This document shows positions 22,934 through 63,745 of a stretch of 64,000 nt of DNA, piece by piece (the first letter of the stretch is position 1; every line of letters begins with the position of its first letter). The translations under genes were made by a program, and so were the position numbers. The DNA is from a virus (Duplodnaviria > Heunggongvirae > Uroviricota > Caudoviricetes), in the IMG/VR virus record IMGVR_UViG_3300037067_004861. One strand, 5' to 3'. The notes under the pieces were generated by a model. The model was not told the DNA's origin, ran no database searches, and saw nothing but the letters and a program-made list of their open reading frames with translations.

Positions 22934-23007
22934 TGAGCCCGGCGGGACTTGAACCCGCGGTCTACGGATTAAAAGTCCATTGCTTTCCCAAACTAAGCTA
23001 CAGGCTC
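22934..23007 (-). tRNA. tRNA-Lys (anticodon UUU)
   Basis: Hand-folded cloverleaf: acceptor GAGCCTG/CGGGCTC, D-stem GCTT/AAGC, anticodon arm ATGGA-CTTTTAA-TCCGT, T-arm GCGGG-TTCAAGT-CCCGC. Confidence 0.8.
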
Positions 23008-25395: not shown

Positions 25396-25773
25396 TTAAA
25401 TTAGAAACTCCGCTACTTCACAGAGTAGACTCTTGTTGGTTTGGCTGGCCCGGACGACGCGGAGACTCTTAACTTTGACAGTATTATCAGTGATGGGGCA
25501 CCGTCGGAGAACCTCAGCCCGTGCTTTCGGCATAAGGATACATTTCAAGCCAAGATGTGTAAGATGCTCCGAATCCTGGAGACGCCATTCTGGTTCAATT
25601 TCCGTGATTTCCGGAACGAAGGCCCTACCATAAATAAAGGGAGGCTTGTTCTCCGTAACCTCTACCGTGAGTATGGCTTCACCATTCATCGCCGTGAGAA
25701 TACTATCAACGGCTGGCACGGTAGACAATACATTGCGGTACTTCTCAGACCAATCACTTAGACTCATTTTCAT
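25396..25773 (-). CDS. Hypothetical protein
   Basis: ORF track. Confidence 0.4.
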   Translation of the reverse strand: MKMSLSDWSEKYRNVLSTVPAVDSILTAMNGEAILTVEVTENKPPFIYGRAFVPEITEIEPEWRLQDSEHLTHLGLKCILMPKARAEVLRRCPITDNTVKVKSLRVVRASQTNKSLLCEVAEFLI

Positions 25774-26302
25774 ATCTCCTAGCTAGTCTCTGACGAATCT
25801 TGGATACTTCACTTCGCGTTATCTTCAACGTCTTGGCTGTTTGGGTATCGGTGAGCCCGGAACGCCGGCACTCCACCACAGATCGTTCAATAGGGAGTCG
25901 GATAATAGCATCAATCGTGTCCTCGAACTCCAACTCATCGAATGGATTCGCGGATGCAATATCCTCTTCTATTGAAGAATACTTGAAATTAGCCTTGCGT
26001 TTCGGTGTCCGGATAGCAGCATTATTATGGATGGCTTGACAACAAGCGTCCTTAATCATGCTGCATAGGTATGATGTGATATTTCTATCATTACGTAGTT
26101 TGTGAACGGCTCGCACTAATCCTAGAGTCGCGGAATCCAGCATCTCCTCGTAGTCGTGCGTGAACCGGGAGTAGTATTCCGAGAACCTAAGAACATATGG
26201 CATATGACATAGGATAAGGGCGTCATAGTTTTCACTGTTCTTATATTCGATTAAAATATCATCGCTTGGGTGTGGCGGAAAAGTCACGTTTTCGTACATC
26301 AC
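25754..26302 (-). CDS. Sigma-70 family RNA polymerase sigma factor (phage-encoded; ECF-like, regions 2 and 4)
   Basis: Region 2: YEEMLDSATLGLVRAVHKL...SYLCSMIKDACCQAI. Region 4 HTH: LTDTQTAKTLKITRSEVSKIRQRLARR. Confidence 0.6.
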   Translation of the reverse strand: MMYENVTFPPHPSDDILIEYKNSENYDALILCHMPYVLRFSEYYSRFTHDYEEMLDSATLGLVRAVHKLRNDRNITSYLCSMIKDACCQAIHNNAAIRTPKRKANFKYSSIEEDIASANPFDELEFEDTIDAIIRLPIERSVVECRRSGLTDTQTAKTLKITRSEVSKIRQRLARRYENESK

Positions 26303-26428: not shown

Positions 26429-26698
26429 TTATTGATCCTCTATTCTTACCATCGTCTTACAGTCTTCGGGGATAGTGAACGCCTCGAAAATCTTACCACG
26501 TACCCCAGTCTTAGGTCGGTCCCTTATTGCCTTCATTAAGGACTTGTTACTGAATCCTAGTGGTATGGCGGGTCCGGCGTAGGTGGCATTATAACCATCG
26601 CTCTTGTATTGCCCGCACGACAAGCCACATTTACAGTGTCGGATTTCATAATCACATTTAACCACATCATGGCATTCGCTGCAATAGAATAACTTCAT
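26429..26698 (-). CDS. Zinc-finger protein (CSECH...CDYEIRHCKC)
   Basis: ORF track. Confidence 0.4.
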   Translation of the reverse strand: MKLFYCSECHDVVKCDYEIRHCKCGLSCGQYKSDGYNATYAGPAIPLGFSNKSLMKAIRDRPKTGVRGKIFEAFTIPEDCKTMVRIEDQ

Positions 26699-26707
26699 TA
26701 TTATACC

Positions 26708-27394
26708 TTATACCTCTGCCAGAACTTCAAATTCCTTGCAACGCCACTTATCCCCGGCCCTATGGATATCTGTCTTCTTCGTCCTAACCTTGATAATGGG
26801 GCCACGAGAATTGGTGTTTGACTCTTGAAATTTCAAGACCATGGCAACCGTAGGGTAAAGATAGAGGCCAGGATGGCATTCGGTCTTGCAGGTGGAGAAA
26901 TATGGAGCCTTTACTTTATCTCCAACACTATAGCTACCACTATTCAAACGCCTTTTAGAGCGATAACCGATAATATAATCACCATCCTCCTTGAATCCTC
27001 TGTAATCTGTGTTTAATGTGTTCCTGGGATCAAGAGCAGTATGGTTGATGTTGGCCTCAGTGAGATTAATATCATAGAGGTCCGTTTCTTGCAGATAGGC
27101 TCCTTGGAGATTGGCTCCATGGAGGTTAGCTTCCCATAGATATGCGTATAGGAGATTAGTACCTTGGAGATTGGCCCCTGGGAACTGGGACTGCATTAGT
27201 ACAGCTCCTTGGAGATTGGCTCCTTGAAGATTGGCTCCTTGGAGATTGGCTCTTCGGAGATCGGCTTCTCGAAGATTGGCGCCTCGGAGATCGGCTTCCC
27301 GGAGATCGGCCTCATAGAGATTAGCTCTTTCTCCACCTTCTCTATCTTGTAGCCAAAGACTATGCTTTTCCAGGGCGACTTTAATATCAATCAT
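26708..27394 (-). CDS. Pentapeptide-repeat protein with a conserved unrecognised C-terminal domain (paralog 1 of 3)
   Basis: A(D/N)LxxA(N/D)L repeats; C-terminal DYRGFKEDGDYIIGYRSKRRL...TECHPGLYLYPT...KWRCKEFEVLAE is shared with 27408..28148 and 28599..29399. Confidence 0.7.
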   Translation of the reverse strand: MIDIKVALEKHSLWLQDREGGERANLYEADLREADLRGANLREADLRRANLQGANLQGANLQGAVLMQSQFPGANLQGTNLLYAYLWEANLHGANLQGAYLQETDLYDINLTEANINHTALDPRNTLNTDYRGFKEDGDYIIGYRSKRRLNSGSYSVGDKVKAPYFSTCKTECHPGLYLYPTVAMVLKFQESNTNSRGPIIKVRTKKTDIHRAGDKWRCKEFEVLAEV

Positions 27395-27407
27395 GGCTTA
27401 ACCCTTA

Positions 27408-28148
27408 TTATTCATACTCTGCCAGAACTTCAAACTCCTTGCAACGCCACTTCTTACCAGCCTTATGAATATCTGTCTTCTTCGTTCTTACCACAATTAT
27501 AGGGCCCCAAGAATTGGGATTTCCTCTTTGAAAGTTCAATACCATCTCTATTGTAGGGTAGAGATAAAGGCCCGGATGGCATTCTGTCGTACAGGTGGAG
27601 AAGTAAGGGGCTTTTACTTTCTCTCCGATACTGTAGTGACCACTATTCAAACGCCTTTTCGTCCGGTATCCGATAATATAATCACCATCCTCCTTGAAGC
27701 CTTTATATTCCATATTCAAGGTATTTCTTGGGTCCAGAACAGTACCGGTGATCCTGGCCCTGGTGAGATTAGTTCCGTAGAGGTCAGTTTCCTGTAAACA
27801 GGCTCCTTGGAGATTGGCTTCAGAGAGGTCAGCTCCCGATAGATGTGCGTATAGGAGATTTGCCCATTGAAGGTTGTTTTCTCGAAGGTTGGCCTGCATT
27901 AAGTAGGCTCCGCTGAGTGAGGCTCCTTTGAAATTAGCTACTTGAAGATCGGCCCCATGGAATGTAGCATAGGAAAGATTAGCATATTGTAGGTTGGCAC
28001 CACGTAGGTCGGCTTTGGTGAGATCAGCATTTTGAAGGTCAGCTTCGCGGAGATCGGCTCCTAGGAAATTTGCTCGCTCTCCGTCCGGATCACCGTGAAG
28101 CCACTTCCTATGGGAATCTAGAATGCCTTTAATAGTGATATCAATCAT
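27408..28148 (-). CDS. Pentapeptide-repeat protein with the same C-terminal domain (paralog 2 of 3)
   Basis: See 26708..27394. Confidence 0.7.
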   Translation of the reverse strand: MIDITIKGILDSHRKWLHGDPDGERANFLGADLREADLQNADLTKADLRGANLQYANLSYATFHGADLQVANFKGASLSGAYLMQANLRENNLQWANLLYAHLSGADLSEANLQGACLQETDLYGTNLTRARITGTVLDPRNTLNMEYKGFKEDGDYIIGYRTKRRLNSGHYSIGEKVKAPYFSTCTTECHPGLYLYPTIEMVLNFQRGNPNSWGPIIVVRTKKTDIHKAGKKWRCKEFEVLAEYE

Positions 28149-28151
28149 AAT

Positions 28152-28493
28152 TTAACCTTTAAAATCAATTACACCGTACTCAGAGTTGGTGATAGTGTAA
28201 TAGCAACGTCGGACGCCAACCATTTGCATAAATGATCGGCAGGTCCGACAGGGTGTCGCATTAGCGTAGTCACCATTCTTTAGGACACGGACGACATAAA
28301 CAATAGAACCCTTATCCAACTTCCTGCACAATCGGGCTTCGGCATGAGCCTGCGGTTCCGGATATCGGCAAGGCAGATTAGTTGATTTTACTATCGTTCC
28401 ATCGGCCCTAAGTCCCACGGCTCCGATACAATATCTCCTGATATCATTCTTTTTGATAGCAATACGTTCGGCTAATCGGAACATGCGTTTCAT
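28152..28493 (-). CDS. Cytidine/deoxycytidylate deaminase-fold zinc enzyme (CDA, dCMP-deaminase or TadA-like; 113 aa)
   Basis: Zinc-binding motifs HAE and PCxxC (HAEARL...ATPCRTCRSF). Confidence 0.6.
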   Translation of the reverse strand: MKRMFRLAERIAIKKNDIRRYCIGAVGLRADGTIVKSTNLPCRYPEPQAHAEARLCRKLDKGSIVYVVRVLKNGDYANATPCRTCRSFMQMVGVRRCYYTITNSEYGVIDFKG

Positions 28494-28518
28494 GGTTGTA
28501 TATCTTTAATAGTAAAAG

Positions 28519-28591
28519 TAGGACGGGAAGGAATCGAACCTTCGGCCACGACTTTATAAGAATCGCACTCTAACCACTGAGTTACCGTCCC
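28519..28591 (-). tRNA. tRNA-Ile (anticodon UAU)
   Basis: Hand fold: acceptor GGGACGG/CCGTCCT (G1-U72), D-stem ACTC/GAGT, anticodon arm CGATT-CTTATAA-AGTCG, T-arm GAAGG-TTCGATT-CCTTC. Confidence 0.75.
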
Positions 28592-28598
28592 ATTCCTT

Positions 28599-29399
28599 TT
28601 AGTATTCTGTCTCGGACAGGACTTCAAACTCCTTGCAACGCCACTTGTCTCCCGCCCTATGAATATCCGTCTTCTTGGCTTTCACTTTAATGATAGGACC
28701 TGCTAGGGAGGTACTGTGGGTATACATAAAGTTTAATACCATTTGAACCGTGGGGTAGAGGTAAAGACCTGGATGGCATGGAGAAAAGCTAATAGAGAAG
28801 TAAGGTGACGTAACTTTCTCCCCGACTGTGTATTCCCCATCGTTCATAAGACGCCTTTTCGTCCTGTATCCGATAATATAATCACCGTCCTCCTCAAATC
28901 CTTTGTAGTCTCTATTAGGCGTATTACTTGGATTGAGACAAGTGCGGATGAGATCGGCTCCTTCTAGATCAGCCCCATAGAGGGCAGTCTCAGAGAGAGC
29001 AGCCCAACGGAGATCGGCTCTTTGGAGATGGGCATTTTGAAGGTCAGCTTCTCGGAGATCGGCTCCTTGGAGATTGGCTCCTTGGAGATCGGCTCCTTGG
29101 AGATTGGCGTAACATAGTTTTGCATGTTGTAGATTCGCTTTTTGGAGACAGGCATATTTAAGATTGGCTTCTCGGAGATCGGCTTCTTGTAGATTGGCTC
29201 CTTGGAGATTAGCGTGACATAGGGTGTTCCCTCTTAAACTAGCATAAGAGAGATTGACTCCTGGAAGATCGGACCCATTTAGAATGACTCCTTGGAAATT
29301 TGCTCTTTCTCCACCCTCTATATTCTTGAGCCAAAGACTGTGCTTTTCCACGGTGGTTTTAATATCAATCATTGTATTTCCTAAATTAGAGTTATCCAT
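28599..29399 (-). CDS. Pentapeptide-repeat protein with the same C-terminal domain (paralog 3 of 3)
   Basis: See 26708..27394. Confidence 0.7.
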   Translation of the reverse strand: MDNSNLGNTMIDIKTTVEKHSLWLKNIEGGERANFQGVILNGSDLPGVNLSYASLRGNTLCHANLQGANLQEADLREANLKYACLQKANLQHAKLCYANLQGADLQGANLQGADLREADLQNAHLQRADLRWAALSETALYGADLEGADLIRTCLNPSNTPNRDYKGFEEDGDYIIGYRTKRRLMNDGEYTVGEKVTSPYFSISFSPCHPGLYLYPTVQMVLNFMYTHSTSLAGPIIKVKAKKTDIHRAGDKWRCKEFEVLSETEY

Positions 29400-29614: not shown

Positions 29615-29652
29615 ATCATCGCATGGATCAAATATATGACCCATGCGATGAT
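29615..29652. promoter_or_regulatory. 12-bp-arm inverted repeat ATCATCGCATGG-13 nt-CCATGCGATGAT in AT-rich intergenic DNA; GATATTATTATCA motif follows directly
   Basis: Direct reading. Confidence 0.4.
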
Positions 29653-29974: not shown

Positions 29975-30439
29975 TCAAACTAAAACTAAATTGAACCTCC
30001 AGAATATTTGAATATTGATTTTACAATCATCTAGAGGGTAGATTCGTCCCTGTGGGTCATATATCTTCCCCTCTTCATGATTCCAGGCTACCGCGTGCCA
30101 ATAGGTCCGAGCCTTACCGCATAGGATACCATCACAACACTTCAAATGATTATGAAATCTATTCTCATCGAATTGGAGAACAAATTCATCATCTCCATAG
30201 ACAGTCTGGACCGGCCTTGGCTCTATGGGTGTTACCGCGAACCCACGAGCCAAAGCTATATCTATAATCTCTTGAGTATGGAATCCTTTTCTCTGGGCCG
30301 GTCCTTTGAGATCAGGATGAATAATCTCACTACCGTCGTGTCCTACTGTCGCTATTAACTCTTCTACCGCCACACCCATGACCATAGCAGCAGCGGTAAT
30401 ACTGCAAGACCAACTATTTGGTTGTTTTAGTAGAAGCAT
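29975..30439 (-). CDS. Papain-like cysteine peptidase (C39-like fold)
   Basis: NSWSCSITAAAMV (Cys box) and WHAVAWNHEEGKIYDPQG (His box). Confidence 0.45.
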   Translation of the reverse strand: MLLLKQPNSWSCSITAAAMVMGVAVEELIATVGHDGSEIIHPDLKGPAQRKGFHTQEIIDIALARGFAVTPIEPRPVQTVYGDDEFVLQFDENRFHNHLKCCDGILCGKARTYWHAVAWNHEEGKIYDPQGRIYPLDDCKINIQIFWRFNLVLV

Positions 30440-30462: not shown

Positions 30463-30942
30463 TTACTCTTCTTTAGTTTCCAGATCATCAATTGATAATT
30501 CAATCAGATTCGTCACATACTTATAAACGCTTTTCGGCACGTTACAGCCGATTACTGTGACATTAATCCCAAGATTACCCAGTTTCTTGTAGAGAGGTAT
30601 TAAATCGGGATTCGAGGAGCAAATGATTACATTATCAATTGAGTGATCGTTTACCCCGGTCAACACGTCCGTGGCTACCCCGACACCCCACGAGCATCGT
30701 TGAATCTTGCGATCTCCGATATTAAGAGTATAGGGCTTCTTGTATTTCGTAATGAAGCCCAACGACCGCAGATAGTGAATAAACGGTGAAGCCTCATTCT
30801 CGGATTGGCAACCATAAGCGATAGCCAGGGTTAGGTTCTCGCACCGTTCCTTCAAGAGAACATAGTTTAGTTTCCCTACTCCGAACTTCTTTTGTAGTTT
30901 GAAATAGAGATCACTGATATCAACATACAGACCGGTCTTCAT
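30463..30942 (-). CDS. NYN/LabA-like (PIN-fold) domain protein
   Basis: LYVDISDLYF ... VGVATDVL ... VIICSSNPDLIPLYKKLGNLGINVTVIG pattern. Confidence 0.45.
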   Translation of the reverse strand: MKTGLYVDISDLYFKLQKKFGVGKLNYVLLKERCENLTLAIAYGCQSENEASPFIHYLRSLGFITKYKKPYTLNIGDRKIQRCSWGVGVATDVLTGVNDHSIDNVIICSSNPDLIPLYKKLGNLGINVTVIGCNVPKSVYKYVTNLIELSIDDLETKEE

Positions 30943-31705
30943 TTCTTAATTCCTCTGCTATAGCTACTGAGTTTGAAGTGCCAATAATATCAGCACCGGC
31001 GTCAATGAAAAGTTTTAATTGCGAAGCCGTTTTAATACCACCGGCGGCCTTGATTTTAAAATCATCAGCCCTATTCCAGTGTCGGAGATTATCCCATAGT
31101 CTTACAGTTGGTAATGTGGCACCACTCTTACCCCACCCCGTTGAGGTCTTGATTGCATAGGCACCGCTATCATAAACTATATGCCAAGCATCCTCTAGTT
31201 CTGTTGTGGTTAGGAGACACTCTTCAACAATAATCTTAACTCTAACACCGTGGACATTAGCCTCATCGACTAACTCCGCTAAGTCTTCGGCTAAGAAACG
31301 TGGACGCCTATCCTTGAAATCTCCTATATTCCAAACTACATCGACTTCATTGGCCCCATCCCCGATTGCATCAGCTACCTCACGTAGTTTAGCCGTTTGG
31401 GTAGAATACCCAAGAGGGAAGCCAATAACTGTAGCAATAAGAAGATCATAATCACTATATCTTACTGCATAATCTACTTTGGTGGGTGGGATACATATCC
31501 CACGGAAACCATATTTCTTGCACTCATCAATGAGTCTATCAATATCCTTCTCTGTGGTATCCGGTCGTAGTAGAGTATGGTCAATTCTGTCAAGCATTCT
31601 GTTCTCCGAAGAAAAGTGATATTTCTTGTTCTGCATTCTCCGTGGATGCGTGGATGCAATTATACCGACACGGTAGTGTGGCAAAGTCATGTCGTATAAC
31701 AGCAA
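30920..31705 (-). CDS. deoC: Deoxyribose-phosphate aldolase (DeoC); likely true start at Met37 (about nt 31597), 4 nt after the ndk stop
   Basis: IDHTLLRP...CIPP...TVIGFPLGYSTQ...EVDVVWNIG...IKTSTGWG...IKAAGGIK are the DeoC class I aldolase motifs. Confidence 0.7.
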   Translation of the reverse strand: MLLYDMTLPHYRVGIIASTHPRRMQNKKYHFSSENRMLDRIDHTLLRPDTTEKDIDRLIDECKKYGFRGICIPPTKVDYAVRYSDYDLLIATVIGFPLGYSTQTAKLREVADAIGDGANEVDVVWNIGDFKDRRPRFLAEDLAELVDEANVHGVRVKIIVEECLLTTTELEDAWHIVYDSGAYAIKTSTGWGKSGATLPTVRLWDNLRHWNRADDFKIKAAGGIKTASQLKLFIDAGADIIGTSNSVAIAEELRNEDRSVC

Positions 31706-31979
31706 CTATCTCACGAACTGCGTATACCGCGTCCTCACCGACAACTACTAAGCCAAGTAATGGGGCGCTAAGCATAAAGATTTTATTATCATCATAAACC
31801 ATATCCCCATGTAATCGAAGATGTGGATACATCTTACCGTACCACTCATCATCTTTTTGGAGGAGAGCGGCACCTGTTATCCGCAGATACTTGTCCTCTA
31901 TTCTACTAATAATCCGCCCAATAAGACCACGCTCTTGGGCGTCTGGTTTTATAATCACTAGCGTTCGTTCGACTGACAT
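31590..31979 (-). CDS. ndk: Nucleoside diphosphate kinase
   Basis: TLVIIKPDAQERGLIGRIISRIE and NCIHASTENAEQEISLFF (active-site His). Confidence 0.7.
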   Translation of the reverse strand: MSVERTLVIIKPDAQERGLIGRIISRIEDKYLRITGAALLQKDDEWYGKMYPHLRLHGDMVYDDNKIFMLSAPLLGLVVVGEDAVYAVREIVAVIRHDFATLPCRYNCIHASTENAEQEISLFFGEQNA

Positions 31980-34370: not shown

Positions 34371-34627
34371 TAGCGGTATCCATCAAAAATATAAGTATAG
34401 GGTTTACCAGTATTCTTCTTATAAACGCACTCATGTCTTGGCAATATACTACATGGTTCAATACACTCGGATACAATTGGTCTAGTTGAATATTTGGAGT
34501 AGAATATCAATTCCGGAAGATATCCTGGTAGTATTATAATTTGACCATCCTTAGGTCCACCTAATAACTGTACTTCCATAAGTTGCCTATGATAATATGA
34601 TATTAAAAGCATAATAATAAAAGCCAC
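34370..34627 (-). CDS. Hypothetical protein
   Basis: ORF track. Confidence 0.35.
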   Translation of the reverse strand: MAFIIMLLISYYHRQLMEVQLLGGPKDGQIIILPGYLPELIFYSKYSTRPIVSECIEPCSILPRHECVYKKNTGKPYTYIFDGYR

Positions 34628-34694
34628 CGGTAGGAATTGAACCTACAACCTGTTGATTACAAATCAACTCCTCTACCTATTGAGGTACAGTGGC
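34622..34694 (-). tRNA. tRNA-Thr (anticodon UGU)
   Basis: Hand fold: acceptor GCCACTG/CGGTGGC, D-stem CCTC/GAGG, anticodon arm GTTGA-TTTGTAA-TCAAC, T-arm GTAGG-TTCAATT-CCTAC. Confidence 0.8.
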
Positions 34695-34695
34695 A

Positions 34696-34767
34696 CTGTG
34701 CGGCCAGGACTTGAACCTGGAATCAACTGCTTAACAGGCAGATGCTTAACCATTAAGCTACCGCACA
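34696..34767 (-). tRNA. tRNA-Asn (anticodon GUU)
   Basis: Hand fold: acceptor TGTGCGG/CCGCACA, D-stem GCTT/AAGC, anticodon arm TCTGC-CTGTTAA-GCAGT, T-arm CCAGG-TTCAAGT-CCTGG. Confidence 0.75.
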
Positions 34768-35058
34768 AACTAATTTTTGTGTCGCACCTAGTCCAAATAC
34801 AATTGACTGATATATCATATCATAATATTGGTAAAATGTAAAGAAAAACTTTTCTTTTGGGTTAAGATCTTTTAAGAGTGAGTTCACTACTAATTTTAGA
34901 TTATTTTTTTCTATTTCAAAATCCTCCTGAGGTATCCATTCTACTATGTGTCCATAAAATCCTACAGGTGGTCTTGGGAATAGTGATAGGGACACAAAAA
35001 TAGATTTAAACTCTAACTCTGTATACACAATGGCAAAAGCATCTACCATAGTAATCAT
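34753..35058 (-). CDS. Hypothetical protein (3' end overlaps tRNA-Asn by about 15 nt)
   Basis: ORF track. Confidence 0.35.
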   Translation of the reverse strand: MITMVDAFAIVYTELEFKSIFVSLSLFPRPPVGFYGHIVEWIPQEDFEIEKNNLKLVVNSLLKDLNPKEKFFFTFYQYYDMIYQSIVFGLGATQKLVCAVA

Positions 35059-35903: not shown

Positions 35904-38183
35904 TTATTTATCACCCCAACTTGCTCTATATGTTTTCCAATCCATGCCAATAAGTGGTACGATCGGCCTATAGCTTTCTACCACTGTATGTACAATCTCT
36001 TTCACTTCATCTACCTTAGATGGGTCTACGGGAGTCAATACTTCATCATGGATATTCATTGGCTGTACTAGCCACTTATGCACGCCATAAGGCTGTACGT
36101 CCCATACTCTACGTTGCAGTTCTTTAGTTATTCCCGCTCCTGTGGATTGGATTTCGTGATTAGCCGCCGCCCGCATATTGCTTGCTTGGATATTAAAAGC
36201 AGAAGCGAACAACGCGGATTGTGCTGCCCCCGCTACCGTCTGCATCCTATCGCGGCGTTTCACTTTCAACTTAATGAATTTCCAGCCTTTCGGTGGGTTC
36301 TGGGCTAGATTAAATAGCTCCTTACATATCCTGTTCTCAAGAGTGAAATAACGCGGGAAACCAAGAAGACTCTCAATGTAATCGGAAGGCTCTGCCCATA
36401 TGACTGCCGAACCAATACCGCCCGGCTGCCGCATAGAGCAGAACATATCGAAAATTCGTTGTCTTGCTTTGGCGATTCCAGGATATCGTTTGGCGAAACT
36501 CTCGTAGGCTTTATTGGCAGTCTCGGCATCAATATGTAGCCGGTTCTCTAGTGTCTGGGCGTTACCGCCGTAATTCATGGCAAAAATACCGCTCTTACCC
36601 GCCTTATACATATCGTTTTCAGTCTTCTCTGATTTGAGTATATCCTCATAAGAGAAACCAGGAAACAGTTCTTGGGCGAATAGGCCGTGGATTTTAAGCC
36701 GGGTCTTCCCGTCTTTGCAGTCCTTGCAACCTTTTCCCTCGCATTTTGGGCAGTCAATCTCCGTTAGTAGGTCTTCACGTAGTTTGGGGTCTTTATACAC
36801 GGCCTCACTGATTGCTACCTCGAAACTATCGAAGTCCCCACCGCATAGTATGTGTCCATTATCGGCTAACGGGAAGCACTCTCTTATCTCTTTCACCCCT
36901 TTAATACCTTGGGGGTTCAAACCATCGGCACCACTCATCCGCCCGGACAGGGCACCGATAGCCTTGAAGGAGGCATGGAACCGTTCGGATTTGATAAGTT
37001 TATCAAAAAGCTCAATCTCTTTATCAGCGCCACGGGCATCCAAGACTTCTTGAGCCCGCTTCGCGGCGACGGTGTTTCCTTTCCACTCCGAGATAGATTT
37101 AAGAACCTTTTCCCCAGTGCCTTCCTTGTCGATAGTGACCATGGCTTCCGCAGCGGACATTACCTCACGGAGATAACCTTTCACCGCGTTAGGGGCGGTC
37201 TTGACGCTACCGCGCTTAGCTATGGCTAAATCCCTTTGCTTCTTTAAGCCCTCGACATCCAACTTATAACCCCGCCACCGCACGGCACCAATCATGCAAG
37301 CCAATTCAGAGTCAGTATCTCCGGGTTCGGGAGACTCGAAAAACTTGTATAAGTCTCTTGTGTAGACAATATCGTTAGCTGCGTATTTCCGGGCTAGATC
37401 ACTATAAGCCCAGTGATTGATATGGTGATGGATTACTTCCGGCCAGGCGCCCTTCCAATTGCTCTTGTTGCCAACGGCATTGGCGAAAGGAGCATAACCT
37501 AATTCCACTGGATTCCAATGCTCATTGACTCCAATATCAACTAGCTTCAAGATCAAGTCTTCCTTGACTCCTAGAGCATGTTGAGCCAGATTCTTCAATG
37601 ACCCTGAGGCACTGAATTTGAGAACAATATCTTTGAAGTCCGGGTCCACGTCGCCATTAGGCAGTTCTAAATCCCTGATCTGCCATTGTGGTGCGTACTT
37701 GTCCTTCCGACGTGAGAAATAGATTCCATCCAGTTCAATCCTGTCTTCTAGTTCATTACGCAGTAACGTAGCCAAACAGGTGGGGACTCTTTTCACACGT
37801 ATATCACTACGCTCCATTAAACTCTGATATGGACCCTTCCTAGCCCATAACATAACGTCACATGCTCTTTTCGGCTTCAAGCAGACATTGCTACCGCGAG
37901 CCTTGTATTCCAATTCCGCGATATACTCGATATTGTCTTCCGGGATGATATTATAATCATCAGCCAGAACGAAGGTGGTATAGGCTTTATACAAATGGTA
38001 CCAGTCGAACGCCAGATTGAAGCCACACACATCCTGTTGTGCTAACCACTCCAATAAATCTATACTCTCACTTATAGGATGACGCCAAAACTCCCACATT
38101 TTAATATCACCATCGTCTTCGGCGTATTGCAGTAATACGACGAAACTATGGAGGCCGCAGGTTTCGGTGTCAAGGTATATCAT
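35904..38183 (-). CDS. Family-A DNA polymerase with an N-terminal 3'-5' exonuclease domain
   Basis: Exo I YLDTETCGL; motif A CGGDFDSFEVAI; motif B KAGKSGIFAMNYGG; motif C MNIHDEVL. Confidence 0.8.
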   Translation of the reverse strand: MIYLDTETCGLHSFVVLLQYAEDDGDIKMWEFWRHPISESIDLLEWLAQQDVCGFNLAFDWYHLYKAYTTFVLADDYNIIPEDNIEYIAELEYKARGSNVCLKPKRACDVMLWARKGPYQSLMERSDIRVKRVPTCLATLLRNELEDRIELDGIYFSRRKDKYAPQWQIRDLELPNGDVDPDFKDIVLKFSASGSLKNLAQHALGVKEDLILKLVDIGVNEHWNPVELGYAPFANAVGNKSNWKGAWPEVIHHHINHWAYSDLARKYAANDIVYTRDLYKFFESPEPGDTDSELACMIGAVRWRGYKLDVEGLKKQRDLAIAKRGSVKTAPNAVKGYLREVMSAAEAMVTIDKEGTGEKVLKSISEWKGNTVAAKRAQEVLDARGADKEIELFDKLIKSERFHASFKAIGALSGRMSGADGLNPQGIKGVKEIRECFPLADNGHILCGGDFDSFEVAISEAVYKDPKLREDLLTEIDCPKCEGKGCKDCKDGKTRLKIHGLFAQELFPGFSYEDILKSEKTENDMYKAGKSGIFAMNYGGNAQTLENRLHIDAETANKAYESFAKRYPGIAKARQRIFDMFCSMRQPGGIGSAVIWAEPSDYIESLLGFPRYFTLENRICKELFNLAQNPPKGWKFIKLKVKRRDRMQTVAGAAQSALFASAFNIQASNMRAAANHEIQSTGAGITKELQRRVWDVQPYGVHKWLVQPMNIHDEVLTPVDPSKVDEVKEIVHTVVESYRPIVPLIGMDWKTYRASWGDK

Positions 38184-60433: not shown

Positions 60434-63400
60434 CTAACTTAGTTTTAACGTGTTACGTCGAATCTCTCTACGGATAACGGTAGCAACATTAAGAGCATCT
60501 TGTCTATTATTATTTGTTCCACTCATATTGACATTAATATCACCGACGTTTACTACCGGTCCACCGTTAGACTTGAATGAAGGACGCATCCCAGCATTCA
60601 TAGCAACTAGTTGAGTATAGAATTGTCTGGATGCCTTTGGATTAGCAATAAACTCTCCAGGACTCAACATAGCAGGTATTTTATCAGTACCTCTTGTGAA
60701 ACCACCGGAGGCCCGATATAATAATCCACCTAATTGTTTTCCCGTAGAAGTTTGAGCACTCGCCTGAGCTATAGCTTGTGCCGTAGCAACCGCCTGCGCA
60801 GAAACAGCTTGAAGAGCACCTATCATACTCTGCGCAGCAGCATTTACCGCACCGGCTCCAGCCGATGCACCACTTGCGATATTATTGTTTAAAGCAGACC
60901 CTACATTCTGACTAGATGTAATGTTTTTGGTTTCCCAAGACTTAATGGCTCCCTCGAATTGTTTGAGTCTCGACATTGCTGTCGATCCCACATCCATTTT
61001 CTCAGTTTCTTTGCCAATACGTCCTTGGGCCTCCGAGGCTTCCGTAGCTAAACCAATAAGTTCCCTAAGAACACTAGATTCATCGCCCTCCAGTAATCCA
61101 GAAAGATACCCAGAGAAGAGTCCCTTTTTCCCTCTAGCCTCACCAAAAGAATCAGCAATGGCACTTAAATCTTTGAGTTGTTGAGCAAATTCTACTGTAT
61201 CCGTTTGACCACTGCGCATGGACTCAAATAATTTAGCCACCCTATTATCTAGGTCTGTTATCAATGCACTACTATCAAAATCAATTGGTGTAACAAACTT
61301 AGTTTTCTCTAATTCAGCTCTAAGTCTATCACGTATGGTACCCTCACGCTCCAGGGTAGCATTTATCCGCTCTTGCTCTTCGCCTACGGTTTTTTGAGCG
61401 GTTGAGTAATCCCCTAGTTGTTGACCCAGAGTAGCCAATCTATTCTGTTGTTCAAATGGCGTCCCTGCCCCAACTAAGGAGTCAATAATGGGCTGCATTG
61501 ATTTAGAAGCACTAGCAGCGAAGGTTTGGAATCGTGCTTCAATTCGATCAATAGAGGCTATTGTGGCTTTCTCAAAAGTAGTTACCTGACCCGTAATAGG
61601 ATCGAAGAAGTTTATTCCAGAGACGCCACGAAACTCTTCCGTTAGTCCAAGAGCCTTTGCTAAACCACCCTTACCTTTTATGTTAGTTAGTTCTTCATCA
61701 ATAAGTTTAGCAATCTGTTTTAATTCTGCCTCAGCCTTAGCACGTTGCTCAGGATCAAGATTTATTAAACCACCAGCAGCGTCCTTGTCCATCTGCTCCA
61801 TTTTCTTACGCTGAGCAGTATACGTATCAATTAACGAATTAAGATAGGTCTTACTTTGTTGGATACTAGCTGATTCCTGTTTCGCTAGTTTACCCCTATT
61901 AATAATCTGTTGGCCAAGAGCTTTCTGAATATCAGCCTGTTGACGTAGAGAATTGCGGACGTTATCCTCAGCCTTTCTAACGAGATCAACATTCTTTATT
62001 TGATCTGCACTGCTTAGAGCGGTCTTCGCTTGCTCTTTAGCCTGTGTGGAATAATCCTTAGCCAGTTCCGTGTTTCCTTGACGGAAGGCCGCAATAGATT
62101 GTTGTTGTAGTCGCTGACTCTCAGCGATCCGTTTCTTTATTTGTTCGGCTTCTGATAGACTTCTAAGGGATCGTTCAAAATTGAAGTCTTTGAATTCAAA
62201 GAATAGGTCTTTCAATGCCTCGTTAATAGGCTTTAAAGCGCCATGTAAATCCTTAGTTTTGCTTATAAGATCATCGAAAGCACTAGTAACAGCATACTTA
62301 TTGAATGTGAAATTAATAGGAATGACGGTACTATCAGCGTCTTTAGCACGCATGATAATACTATCAAAGAAAGCGTTCGCCGCCGTACCACTCTCTTTAA
62401 GTTGATCTTTTAGACTATTGAATTGAATCTCTTCCAACTGTCCAGTAGTAGAGATCATCTCATTATAGAGTTTAGCACGATCTTGTAGATACTGTTGTAG
62501 TACGCTTAGTTGTTTTGAAGCACCCTCTTGAGCTGCCTCAATCTCCGCACGTACTGCAACGAGGTTTGCTTTATGTCGCGCCTCCGTTGATTTTATAATC
62601 TCATCATCCGCGGCTTTGGCAGCAGCAGATGCACGATTGTAGACGGCTTGCAAAGCCGCCACTGCTGCAAAGGCTATAGCCGCCCATGTTAGTGGGGACT
62701 TCATCAAAGACTTGAGAGCGTTCGTGGCATTAAGAAAAATACCACGTAAACCAGTCACTTGGAAAGTTAATATCCCTAGTGCCTGAGCAGTTTTATTTGC
62801 TGCTATTTGTGCTGTTGCAAAACCAGTAACCCAACTCTGGAATGTACCCTTAATTACTTTCGACGCAACATACCAAGTAGCCGTGGCAACAACTAACGCT
62901 TTGGTCATGGCCCCAATTGCCGCAGGAGCCCCACCAAAGAACTTAAAGAAGGTTAGACTATAGGCAGTAATATCCCGACCTATTTTGGTAAACGCAACGC
63001 TGACCTTATTTAATTCTATCTCTACTTGTTTGGCGTTCGTATTGAAAACAAGGGCTTTTGATTTCTCAAGAGTGCTAGCACTAGCTTCTTTAATTTGTTG
63101 TAGATAGGAGATATAGCGTTCGGCCGATTGTCCTGTTAAACCTAAAGCACCACGGATAGCACGGACACGACTATATAGTTCACCTAGTTCCGTAGCTGTA
63201 GCATTACTGCCCTCAGTAATCTTCGTTAAGAACCCCTGGAAACCATAAGCTTGTATACCAGCCTCAGAAGATGCGATACCTAATTCATCGAAACGTTGAC
63301 GTAAGGCTTCGGTAGGTTTAATTAATTTTAATTCAATGTTAGTGATTAGGGTATACGCTTCATTGTATTTAATACCACTGATAGTTAGTGTAGCTAGAGA

Positions 63401-63745
63401 AGCCGCCACTTCATCGAAATTAACCCCCAGTTCACTGCTTAAAGCAGTAACGCGACCAATTGTATCACCTAACTCTTGACCGCGAACACGGCCTAAGTCG
63501 ATCATTCGGAATAACTTACCAGATACCGTTTCGGCATCGGAAGCAGCCATGCCATAACTATTCATTACAGCAGAAAGCAAATTCACTGACGAACCAAGGT
63601 CAGTTACTGCCGCGATAGAAAAATCACTAGCTGTTTGCAATAAATTAAAAGTATCGGCGGCCCCCACTACCTGGTTGGATAGAATCTCATACGTACCTTC
63701 TGTAACCGCTTTTAGTGGTTGTCCAGTGGCCTCAGAGAAAGCCAT
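60434..63745 (-). CDS. Tail tape-measure protein; the open frame probably continues upstream past the window end, so it is partial
   Basis: More than 1100 aa, long coiled-coil Ala/Gln/Lys-rich body, TP901-type N-terminal core (SAVMNSYGMAASD...LGRVRGQELGDT). Confidence 0.75.
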   Translation of the reverse strand: MAFSEATGQPLKAVTEGTYEILSNQVVGAADTFNLLQTASDFSIAAVTDLGSSVNLLSAVMNSYGMAASDAETVSGKLFRMIDLGRVRGQELGDTIGRVTALSSELGVNFDEVAASLATLTISGIKYNEAYTLITNIELKLIKPTEALRQRFDELGIASSEAGIQAYGFQGFLTKITEGSNATATELGELYSRVRAIRGALGLTGQSAERYISYLQQIKEASASTLEKSKALVFNTNAKQVEIELNKVSVAFTKIGRDITAYSLTFFKFFGGAPAAIGAMTKALVVATATWYVASKVIKGTFQSWVTGFATAQIAANKTAQALGILTFQVTGLRGIFLNATNALKSLMKSPLTWAAIAFAAVAALQAVYNRASAAAKAADDEIIKSTEARHKANLVAVRAEIEAAQEGASKQLSVLQQYLQDRAKLYNEMISTTGQLEEIQFNSLKDQLKESGTAANAFFDSIIMRAKDADSTVIPINFTFNKYAVTSAFDDLISKTKDLHGALKPINEALKDLFFEFKDFNFERSLRSLSEAEQIKKRIAESQRLQQQSIAAFRQGNTELAKDYSTQAKEQAKTALSSADQIKNVDLVRKAEDNVRNSLRQQADIQKALGQQIINRGKLAKQESASIQQSKTYLNSLIDTYTAQRKKMEQMDKDAAGGLINLDPEQRAKAEAELKQIAKLIDEELTNIKGKGGLAKALGLTEEFRGVSGINFFDPITGQVTTFEKATIASIDRIEARFQTFAASASKSMQPIIDSLVGAGTPFEQQNRLATLGQQLGDYSTAQKTVGEEQERINATLEREGTIRDRLRAELEKTKFVTPIDFDSSALITDLDNRVAKLFESMRSGQTDTVEFAQQLKDLSAIADSFGEARGKKGLFSGYLSGLLEGDESSVLRELIGLATEASEAQGRIGKETEKMDVGSTAMSRLKQFEGAIKSWETKNITSSQNVGSALNNNIASGASAGAGAVNAAAQSMIGALQAVSAQAVATAQAIAQASAQTSTGKQLGGLLYRASGGFTRGTDKIPAMLSPGEFIANPKASRQFYTQLVAMNAGMRPSFKSNGGPVVNVGDINVNMSGTNNNRQDALNVATVIRREIRRNTLKLS

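Follow-up and report, generated by a model that had tools for sequence, protein, structure and literature searches.

Pentapeptide-repeat paralogs of a divergent tailed phage share a C-terminal domain with a predicted ADP-ribosyltransferase fold and a non-canonical conserved site

Qnr, MfpA, and AlbG, which are made of pentapeptide repeats, have the shape of DNA and bind gyrase. Qnr and MfpA consist of repeats throughout (~180-220 aa) and bind gyrase or topo IV in the form of a DNA-sized dimer.

The ADP-ribosyltransferase (ART) fold is found in several small enzymes, including the RNA 2'-phosphotransferase Tpt1/KptA, the rifampin ART Arr, the phage anti-CRISPR AcrF11, the Rhs toxins TreTu/TreX, and Alt, ModA, and ModB of phage T4. 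The superfamily is marked by an H-Y-E or R-S-E catalytic triad, whose acidic residue is conserved in strand 5. Phages use ART-fold enzymes for host takeover (T4 Alt/Mod) and against CRISPR (AcrF11). The ADP-ribosylation superfamily also includes the uncharacterized BC2332, a bacterial protein of 210 aa from Bacillus cereus (PDB 2aua), which represents SCOP d.166.1.6 ("BC2332-like").

The rIIB protein of T4 is an anti-defence (anti-RexAB) protein whose mechanism is unexplained. It has an N-terminal HTH, works with a partner, rIIA, and carries a C-terminal domain at aa ~207-309 with the precomputed Pfam tag PF26926. A jumbo-phage paper (PMC7824862) describes rIIB only as a transcription factor, and a term search of it returned no mention of pentapeptide repeats. 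Literature searches returned no title or abstract that describes a phage fusion of pentapeptide repeats to an ADP-ribosyltransferase or that gives rIIB an ART fold, and no papers on DUF7666.

The locus described here lies in a 64,000-nucleotide stretch of viral DNA, referred to as the window. It holds three tandem paralogs (W1, W2, and W3), and the open reading frames lie exactly where the first-pass annotation had placed them. A deaminase and a tRNA gene, both of which the annotation had also recognized, sit between W2 and W3. The features are as follows.

26708..27394, minus strand: W1, open reading frame of 228 aa
27041-27394, minus strand: W1 pentapeptide arm, aa 1-118
26708-27040, minus strand: W1 C-terminal domain, predicted ART fold, aa 119-228
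27204..27322: 15-nt tandem DNA repeats, each equal to one pentapeptide, in the W1 arm (TRF)
27408..28148, minus strand: W2, open reading frame of 246 aa; the copy used for the structure model
27744-28148, minus strand: W2 pentapeptide arm, aa 1-135
27408-27743, minus strand: W2 C-terminal domain, predicted ART fold, aa 136-246
28152..28493, minus strand: CDA-fold zinc deaminase, 113 aa, HAE...PCxxC (PF00383, E 9e-8)
28518..28591, minus strand: tRNA-Ile, anticodon UAU (ARAGORN; Rfam RF00005, 67.7 bits)
28599..29399, minus strand: W3, open reading frame of 266 aa; the most divergent of the three
28944-29399, minus strand: W3 pentapeptide arm, aa 1-152
28599-28943, minus strand: W3 C-terminal domain, predicted ART fold, aa 153-266
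29009-29210: second tandem-repeat array, in the W3 arm (TRF)

The host genome of these genes is that of a very divergent tailed phage. Its backbone is very remote, with a PolA that is 25% identical to that of the nearest deposited phage. Neither megablast of the block nor tblastn of the C-terminal domain gave a match among 50,697 deposited phages. A promoter and terminator scan found no enrichment over shuffled sequence. The 15-nt arrays create shadow open reading frames in alternative frames (PISKEPISKE...), and the metagenome gene caller took one of these over the real start of a paralog. W1 is not frameshifted or truncated: the JGI call P0001, which begins at Met67, reflects the choice of an alternative-frame open reading frame on a contig that is 100% identical to the window.

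The N-terminal arms of all three proteins are bona fide pentapeptide repeats. PF00805 matches W1-W3 with E-values from 2e-32 to 3e-52 (W1, 2.4e-32; W3, 2e-37) and bit scores of 110-174 (cutoff, 20.2). Each arm contains 19-26 consecutive in-register pentapeptides of the A(D/N)LxG type, and the number of coils differs among the copies. In W1-W3 the arm is acidic (pI 4.8-5.3, net charge -5 to -7). Across the wider family it is only mildly acidic and near neutral (median net charge -1.9 per 100 aa). Its length there runs from 20 to 228 aa (median 88), and it often has just 2-4 coils.

The annotation had likened the arms to Qnr and MfpA as DNA mimics. The repeat type is the same and the W1-W3 arms share the acidity, but the comparison goes little further. 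W2 scores 27-47 bits with the Qnr models, for which the NCBIfam cutoffs are 240-500, and 39.5 bits with the MfpA model, for which the cutoff is 360; it thus falls outside both families. Qnr and MfpA are repeats throughout, whereas W1-W3 have a shorter, length-variable arm of 118-152 aa followed by a separate domain of 110 aa, an enzymatic-looking and conserved addition that Qnr, MfpA, and AlbG lack. The low acidity of the family as a whole and the short arms do not favor a strict DNA mimic. On these sequence comparisons, Qnr/MfpA-type mimicry appears weakened for the paralogs.

The C-terminal domain is common to W1-W3, as originally proposed. The copies are not identical, sharing 69-82% of their amino acids, and the domain is longer than the ~95 aa first given, at about 105-110 aa including a conserved T-[CV]-L-D-P-x-N-x-P-N junction. 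The annotation had not recognized the domain, and it is indeed uncatalogued: there is no match in Pfam or PHROG even at E<=10, and a PHROG scan at E<=1 returned noise only. It does not match a well-characterized family with a mundane role.

Relatives of the domain are nonetheless numerous. A word-indexed protein search with a single domain query recovered 3 relatives, and an exhaustive HMMER search was required to reveal 359 cluster representatives (50% identity) at E<=1e-3 and 205 at E<=1e-10. The family thus comprises at least 359 clusters at 50% identity. Within it, the family HMM matches W1 with an E-value of 6e-40 and W3 with 6e-38. Members are nearly all metagenomic and viral, and nearly all have the same pentapeptide fusion. 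PF00805 is present in 123 of 150 representatives, the remainder being mostly short or truncated. The domain is always at the C-terminus, followed by a median of 2 further residues. Database labels for members are "hypothetical protein" or the generic "YjbI with pentapeptide repeats". The family is unnamed in every source, and curated domain models miss most of its members.

Conservation in the domain is concentrated in a small set of residues: R (147/147), F (149/150), S (146/150), C (146/150), H (145/150), P (148/150), G (150/150), Y (136/150, with F in 12 more), a second H (134/150), K (142/150), and a second R (148/149). They fall in the motifs GYR, FST, CHPGLY, H, and KWR, and all are kept in W1-W3. 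Numbered along the domain, the invariant residues include R27, F48, S49, C55, H56, Y60, H93, K98, and R100. In W1 the motifs are GYRS143, FST166, CHPGLY173, and IHRAGDKWR210; W3 retains GYRT, FS(I), CHPGLY, and IHRAGDKWR.

In the structure model, the domain adopts the split beta-sheet fold of ADP-ribosyltransferases (SCOP d.166.1). The closest structure to the modelled domain is BC2332, with 17% identity in the structural alignment. Homology at the sequence level was not detected, as the family profile had no match among PDB sequences at E<=10. Because the profile misses BC2332, the searches revealed no connection of BC2332 to a pentapeptide arm. ModA and ModB, which are R-S-E mono-ARTs, have no sequence similarity to the domain (hhalign probabilities of 0.4% and 0.2%).

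The conserved residues were tentatively assigned to the NAD+ pocket by secondary-structure order and known ART topology. R, S/T, and Y are conserved, but the acidic residue is not, and neither triad is present. There is no conserved catalytic Glu, Asp, or Gln. A canonical R-S-E reading with GYR, FST, and FEV as the triad was rejected since the candidate Glu (FEV in the window) occurs in 26 of 149 members. The strand that bears the acidic residue in canonical ARTs carries an invariant K-x-R in this family. Canonical H-Y-E or R-S-E chemistry is thus unsupported, and the domain could be non-enzymatic.

A second set of matches leads to rIIB. The top Foldseek matches of the domain in BFVD are rIIB proteins (E 3.5e-4 to ~1e-2, TM ~0.6), and DUF7666 proteins are also among the matches (E 6e-3 to 9e-2). 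With hhalign, the domain and the rIIB C-terminal profile align over 89 co-linear columns (P 5.7e-4, probability 29%), pairing TeCHPGLY with TCSxGLH and KWR with KMR. In an empirical null, none of 345 unrelated proteins aligned over at least 80 columns, and the single-sequence score was attained by 1. The DUF7666 model, PF24703, is matched by 3 members out of 37 and by 3 out of 150 (E ~1e-4); W1-W3 themselves do not match it even at E<=10. Searching the rIIB profile against PDB gave noise only.

The family and rIIB have in common a basic residue in beta1, T-C-x-x-G-L-[Y/H], K-x-R, and an alignment that is co-linear over the whole domain. In both, the domain is C-terminal and follows a DNA-related N-terminal module in a phage protein. 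They differ in that module, which is an HTH in rIIB and a pentapeptide arm here, and in F-S-T, H56, and H93 (domain numbering), which are specific to the family and absent from rIIB. No rIIA or rIIB homologs are found in the window or in related loci. The domain is plausibly a remote relative of the T4 rIIB C-terminal domain and of DUF7666, on weak statistics.

The three copies are old duplicates, and all are under purifying selection. A recent duplication or repeat artefact was rejected on a dS between paralogs of 0.9-1.6 together with a dN/dS far under 1. The C-terminal domain is strongly constrained (dN/dS 0.10-0.14). The arm has a dN/dS of 0.36-0.46 and evolves 3-4 times faster than the domain. 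Recurrence of the domain in 359 clusters, together with purifying selection in the window, makes it more than a chance occurrence.

The annotation had described the paralogs, deaminase, and tRNA as a system-like cluster, and the related loci do not bear this out. The family was found at 18 IMG/VR loci compared with 2 MAG contigs (among 185,579 species genomes), counts that are lower bounds since the search used a tighter alignment. The other viral loci, 18 of them, each have one copy of the gene, and no neighbor recurs among them. Neither a deaminase nor a tRNA-Ile lies near the homolog in 20 loci, and no protein cluster recurs there. The homologs' neighbors are phage replication and nucleotide-metabolism genes, so members do occur outside a defence context. 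No PADLOC model matches the paralogs, the deaminase, or the small open reading frames beside them; the only match is a weak NYN at 30463-30942. The family is essentially viral and stand-alone, with no obligatory partner gene.

Could the block nevertheless act as one system, for example by coupling a DNA mimic to the editing of tRNA or nucleic acids? The genes are co-directional and tightly packed, 3-24 nt apart, with the tRNA 7 nt past the W3 stop, and the best NCBIfam match of the deaminase is TadA. That match, however, reaches 24.9 bits against a cutoff of 150, placing the deaminase outside TadA and leaving it a generic member of the CDA fold. The window has four phage tRNAs, and A34 is found in none of them. 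AUA accounts for 24% of Ile codons in the window, with 0-2 per paralog. DeoC, NDK, and an exonuclease adjoin the block, which points to an ordinary nucleotide-metabolism deaminase. With the deaminase, tRNA-Ile, and recurring protein cluster all absent near homologs elsewhere, this reading is largely refuted and highly improbable. From its surroundings, the deaminase is judged a probable passenger of the nucleotide-metabolism module and not a partner of the paralogs, and tRNA-Ile(UAU) is likewise judged a passenger, part of the phage tRNA complement. Somewhat less improbable, yet still unlikely, is a classical DNA mimic, in which the helix itself would be the effector against restriction enzymes or DNA-binding defences, or would protect topoisomerase, and the C-terminal domain would be a dimerization or stabilizing cap. 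Genuine repeats, acidic arms in W1-W3, the precedent of the DNA-shaped gyrase binders, and a location in a DNA-metabolism module are all in keeping with it. The Qnr/MfpA scores, however, are far below cutoff, and the arm is near neutral family-wide, fast-evolving, and anywhere from 20 to 228 aa long. The supposed accessory domain is moreover the most conserved part of the protein, with an invariant polar constellation.

A counter-defence role of a different kind, similar to that of rIIB and non-enzymatic, is a possibility to which we give a minor share of our confidence. The domain would have lost ART catalysis and would act by binding, so as to sequester or block a host sensor, effector, or small molecule; the arm would serve as a scaffold or spacer, and three copies would cover variants of the host factor. 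Against this, there is no rIIA partner and no rIIB-type N-terminal HTH. Moreover, eleven polar or small residues are near-invariant over more than 150 clusters (50% identity), and the C-terminal dN/dS is ~0.1, a pattern seen more typically in catalytic or ligand pockets than in protein-protein interfaces that follow evolving host targets.

Our preferred reading, held tentatively and at somewhat under even confidence, is that W1-W3 are stand-alone intracellular two-domain effectors for host takeover or counter-defence, in which the targeting arm varies while the ART-fold domain, of a non-canonical kind, stays constant. The architecture itself is a mildly acidic, length-variable pentapeptide beta-helix, the T-C-L-D-P-x-N-x-P-N junction, and a constant domain of ~105 aa. 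The arm would be the variable target-docking module and may offer a DNA-shaped surface to a host protein that handles DNA or acts in defence. The constant working end would be the ART-fold domain. Its putative site combines R (beta1), F-S-T, C-H-P-G-L-Y, H, and K-x-R where canonical ARTs have E-x-E, with the Y of C-H-P-G-L-Y probably at the nicotinamide-stacking strand position. The domain is predicted to bind NAD+ or an ADP-ribose-type nucleotide and to perform a non-canonical transfer. Candidate chemistries are a Tpt1-like reaction on a phosphate group and a thiol- or histidine-assisted reaction. A host factor would be disabled or redirected early or midway through infection. Triplication would supply three arms, for up to three targets or target variants, with one chemistry. 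A role in host takeover or anti-defence, which the annotation had suggested, is therefore still plausible given the ART fold and the rIIB-like matches; the DNA-mimic route proposed for it is not upheld.

A broader and doubtful possibility is that the domain, the rIIB C-terminal domain, DUF7666, and BC2332 form one branch of the ART fold, unconnected until now. In this branch, a T-C-x-x-G-L-[Y/H] loop-strand and K-x-R would replace the catalytic E-x-E. Members would share a non-canonical NAD+- or nucleotide-linked activity that phages use against host defence. The targeting module in front of the domain would be exchangeable: an HTH for rIIB, a pentapeptide arm in the present family, and ankyrin or DUF4116 repeats in giant viruses.

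The family amounts to hundreds of clusters, is phage-specific, and is uncatalogued. With an ART fold assigned, it becomes a candidate new class of phage effectors that can be put to the test, and the non-canonical conserved site suggests chemistry unlike that of known ARTs. The combination of a variable arm, a constant domain, and three-fold expansion suggests a modular targeting principle. The possible kinship with rIIB points to C58, G61-L62-H63, K101, and R103 of T4 rIIB (numbering of the aa 195-312 fragment, residue 1 = F195). If true, the single-branch reading would be the first to give the rII function, long unexplained, a concrete biochemical hypothesis and residues to mutate.

W1, W2, and W3 are paralogs composed of a pentapeptide-repeat (PRP) arm and a C-terminal domain. 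They are found in a block of tightly spaced genes (gaps of 3-24 nt).

Features of the block and its flanks
25754-26302, minus strand: sigma-70 region 2-like factor, flanking the block
26708-27394, minus strand: W1 ORF, 228 aa
27408-28148, minus strand: W2 ORF, 246 aa
28152-28493, minus strand: 113-aa CDA-fold deaminase (PF00383, E 9e-8), between W3 and W2
28518-28591, minus strand: tRNA-Ile(UAU) (ARAGORN; Rfam tRNA 67.7 bits), between W3 and W2
28599-29399, minus strand: W3 ORF, 266 aa
30463-30942, minus strand: NYN-domain (LabA-like) putative RNase, flanking the block (weak PADLOC NYN match, E 3e-4)

The three ORFs, pentapeptide repeats, deaminase, and tRNA of the first-pass annotation are all present (ORFs, Pfam, ARAGORN, Rfam). 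Each paralog matches PF00805 (Pentapeptide; E 2e-32 to 3e-52) and carries 19-26 in-register A(D/N)LxG pentapeptides after a short N-terminal cap helix. The C-terminal domain, described as identical and about 95 aa, is indeed shared but spans ~105-110 residues at 69-82% identity. It was rightly called unrecognised, with no Pfam or PHROG match even at E<=10. Window 26644-28002 also occurs, at 100% identity, on the JGI metagenome contig L001. The public W1 protein P0001 begins at Met67 because a metagenome gene caller split W1 and took an alternative-frame ORF in repeat DNA; given the identity of L001, a frameshift was rejected and the truncation is an annotation artefact. Shadow ORFs encoding PISKEPISKE-type peptides arise from the 15-nt arm repeats in an alternative frame (window 27196-27390 and 28964-29155, both minus strand; L001 613-807).

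Other elements are found near the block. Directly downstream of W1, an 89-aa ORF (26429-26698, minus strand) has a CxxC...CxC spacing that hints at a zinc ribbon; no family matches it, and it is not kept beside homologs elsewhere. A hairpin (29615-29652, minus strand) with a 16-bp perfect stem and T-rich tail sits just upstream of a 68-aa ORF overlapping the start of W3, and may be a transcript boundary or processing site. The 154-aa ORF at 29975-30439 (minus strand) matches nothing in Pfam, PHROG, NCBIfam, or PADLOC; by eye, its N-terminal QPNSWSCSITAAAMVMG looks like a putative papain/C39-type cysteine-peptidase motif.

A word-indexed search with the domain returned only three relatives. When 1.84 billion cluster representatives were searched exhaustively by HMMER with a profile of 5 sequences, 359 were returned at E<=1e-3, 205 of them at E<=1e-10. 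Nearly all of the best 150 are proteins of 150-290 aa that end in the domain, and PF00805 precedes it in 123; most others have short or truncated PRP arms. Family arms range from ~20 to 228 aa (median 88), and the domain is followed by a tail of 2 aa in the median. In family member P0034 (480 aa), a long Cys-rich stretch extends the C-terminus. A second search gave 178 members, all metagenomic and either unnamed or generically named. The domain escapes curated models.

Conservation among these 150 representatives is concentrated in short motifs. These are G-Y-R-[TS] (R in 147/147), F-S-[TV] (F 149/150, S 146/150), T-x-E-C-H-P-G-L-Y (C 146, H 145, P 148, G 150, and Y 136 of 150, with F in 12 more), and K-W-R (K 142/150, R 148/149). 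A further His is conserved in 134/150, and the junction T-[CV]-L-D-P-x-N-x-P-N is near-invariant as well. W1-W3 keep every invariant residue.

Scans with just two peptide patterns, whose counts are lower bounds, found the family on 18 IMG/VR viral contigs; 185,579 bacterial and archaeal species genomes yielded only 2 contigs, both from MAGs, which makes the family essentially viral. Deposited phage genomes lack the domain at the tblastn level. The two bacterial matches are a Rickettsiales contig (L022) and an Actinobacteria contig (L023). L023 may be a mis-binned phage or prophage, since it has several gene clusters in common with viral contig L014.

The domain has the ADP-ribosyltransferase (ART) fold. 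AlphaFold models from 5 sequences (pLDDT 80) and from 50 (pLDDT 91.7, pTM 0.84; five concordant models) show the same topology. There is no sequence-level match to PDB chains or to T4 ModA/ModB. SCOP places BC2332-like proteins in the ADP-ribosylation superfamily as family d.166.1.6 (PMC3000352), and a ProFunc match links the BC2332 site to the catalytic sites of diphtheria toxin, exotoxin A, and cholix (PMC3024214).

Residues were placed in the site from secondary-structure order and known ART topology, with no superposition. R27 would lie in strand 1, where ARTs carry H or R, and K98-x-R100 in the strand that normally holds E-x-E. F48/S49 and G-L-Y60 are ~11 residues apart, a spacing like that of the pair of aromatic positions flanking nicotinamide in diphtheria toxin and PARP1. 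Canonical ART catalysis is unsupported because neither triad, H-Y-E or R-S-E, keeps its acidic residue; the Glu of the window 'FEV', which resembles the catalytic Glu, is found in only 26/149 members. Tpt1, the second-best PDB match, is an ART-fold enzyme that works without the Glu, its Arg/His-rich site attacking a phosphate. By this analogy, a non-canonical NAD+-dependent reaction is conceivable.

The duplications are old, as dS between the paralogs (0.9-1.6) is near saturation. The domain has a dN/dS of 0.10-0.14 and the arms 0.36-0.46; the arms are 46-60% identical and differ in coil number. The 15-nt tandem repeats in arm-coding DNA could promote coil gain or loss. Arms are acidic in W1-W3 (pI 4.8-5.3) and domains basic in W1 and W2 (pI 9.1-9.4), biases that are weak across the whole family.

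Deposited phages are only very distantly related to the window, a segment of a tailed-phage genome (PolA identity 25%).

Other genes of the window
30920-31705: DeoC
31590-31979: NDK
35904-38183: PolA
60434-63745: tape measure
Also encoded: helicase, primase, exonuclease, ligase, DEDD exonuclease

The proposal that paralogs, deaminase, and tRNA form a system found no support. At 18 other viral loci the family gene occurs as a single copy, with no tRNA-Ile or deaminase nearby and no recurrent neighbour cluster beyond near-duplicate contigs. Neighbours there include DnaB, beta clamp, dUTPase, methylase, ParB, resolvase, and HTH proteins. PADLOC does not match W1-W3. The family gene thus stands alone as an accessory gene in the DNA-metabolism modules of phages, with the deaminase and tRNA as passengers. 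The deaminase has TadA as its best NCBIfam match (24.9 bits, cutoff 150); its sole relative in deposited phages is in the 485-kb uncultured phage LR745208 (40% identity). The tRNA is explained by AUA making up 24% of Ile codons in window ORFs, with 0-2 per paralog. Four phage tRNAs (Lys-UUU 22934-23007, Ile-UAU 28518-28591, Thr-UGU 34622-34694, Asn-GUU 34695-34768) all decode A/U-rich codon boxes; window GC is 42.8%.

The Qnr/MfpA-style DNA mimicry first suggested by the repeats is weakened, because the paralogs fall outside Qnr/MfpA, the arms are short and variable, and constraint is strongest on the C-terminal domain.

Foldseek matches among predicted viral structures are mostly rIIB of T4-like and other phages (E 3.5e-4 to ~3e-2, query TM ~0.6). 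By hhalign, the whole domain aligns to T4 rIIB residues 207-309 (P 0.003), and to a small rIIB C-terminal profile over 89 co-linear columns (probability 29%, P 5.7e-4). T-e-C-H-P-G-L-Y pairs with T-C-S-x-G-L-H of rIIB, and K-W-R with K-M-R. Among 345 unrelated phage proteins used as an empirical null, one reached the single-sequence score, over 29 columns only, and none aligned over at least 80. These alignments are suggestive of remote homology between the domain and the rIIB C-terminus.

T4 rIIB (L024 2966-3904) has an N-terminal HTH, with several HTH Pfam models at aa 7-50 just under gathering thresholds; its C-terminal relatives bear the precomputed Pfam tag PF26926. The protein counteracts RexAB by an unknown mechanism (PMC10312443), is toxic by itself, and sets off a bacterial gasdermin response (PMC10312443; PMC12409349). 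An earlier comparative paper treats rIIB as a transcription factor (PMC7824862). Neither rIIA nor rIIB homologs occur in the window or related loci.

DUF7666 proteins are also among the Foldseek matches, and three family members weakly match Pfam DUF7666. DUF7666-like domains, likewise returned by Foldseek, follow ankyrin (Megavirus), DUF4116 (Bodo saltans virus), or pentapeptide repeats ('Pentapeptide', Rheinheimera phage Barba28A) in giant viruses and a Rheinheimera phage. In P0022, too, the domain follows DUF4116.

A fusion of pentapeptide repeats with an ART-fold (rIIB-C/DUF7666-like) domain, or an ART fold for rIIB, was not found in the titles and abstracts searched, nor by a term search of PMC7824862. 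The family is a novel form of two known kinds, PRP proteins and members of the ART superfamily. It is possible but rather unlikely that it reveals a broader branch of the ART fold, so far unrecognised, that also takes in rIIB. The main rival reading is a non-enzymatic binder resembling T4 rIIB; the best-supported one is a modular effector. Its arm would be a variable targeting module, and its ART-fold domain the constant working end, with a non-canonical site that may use NAD+ or a nucleotide. The effector would act inside the cell in host takeover or counter-defence, and three copies would provide three specificities.
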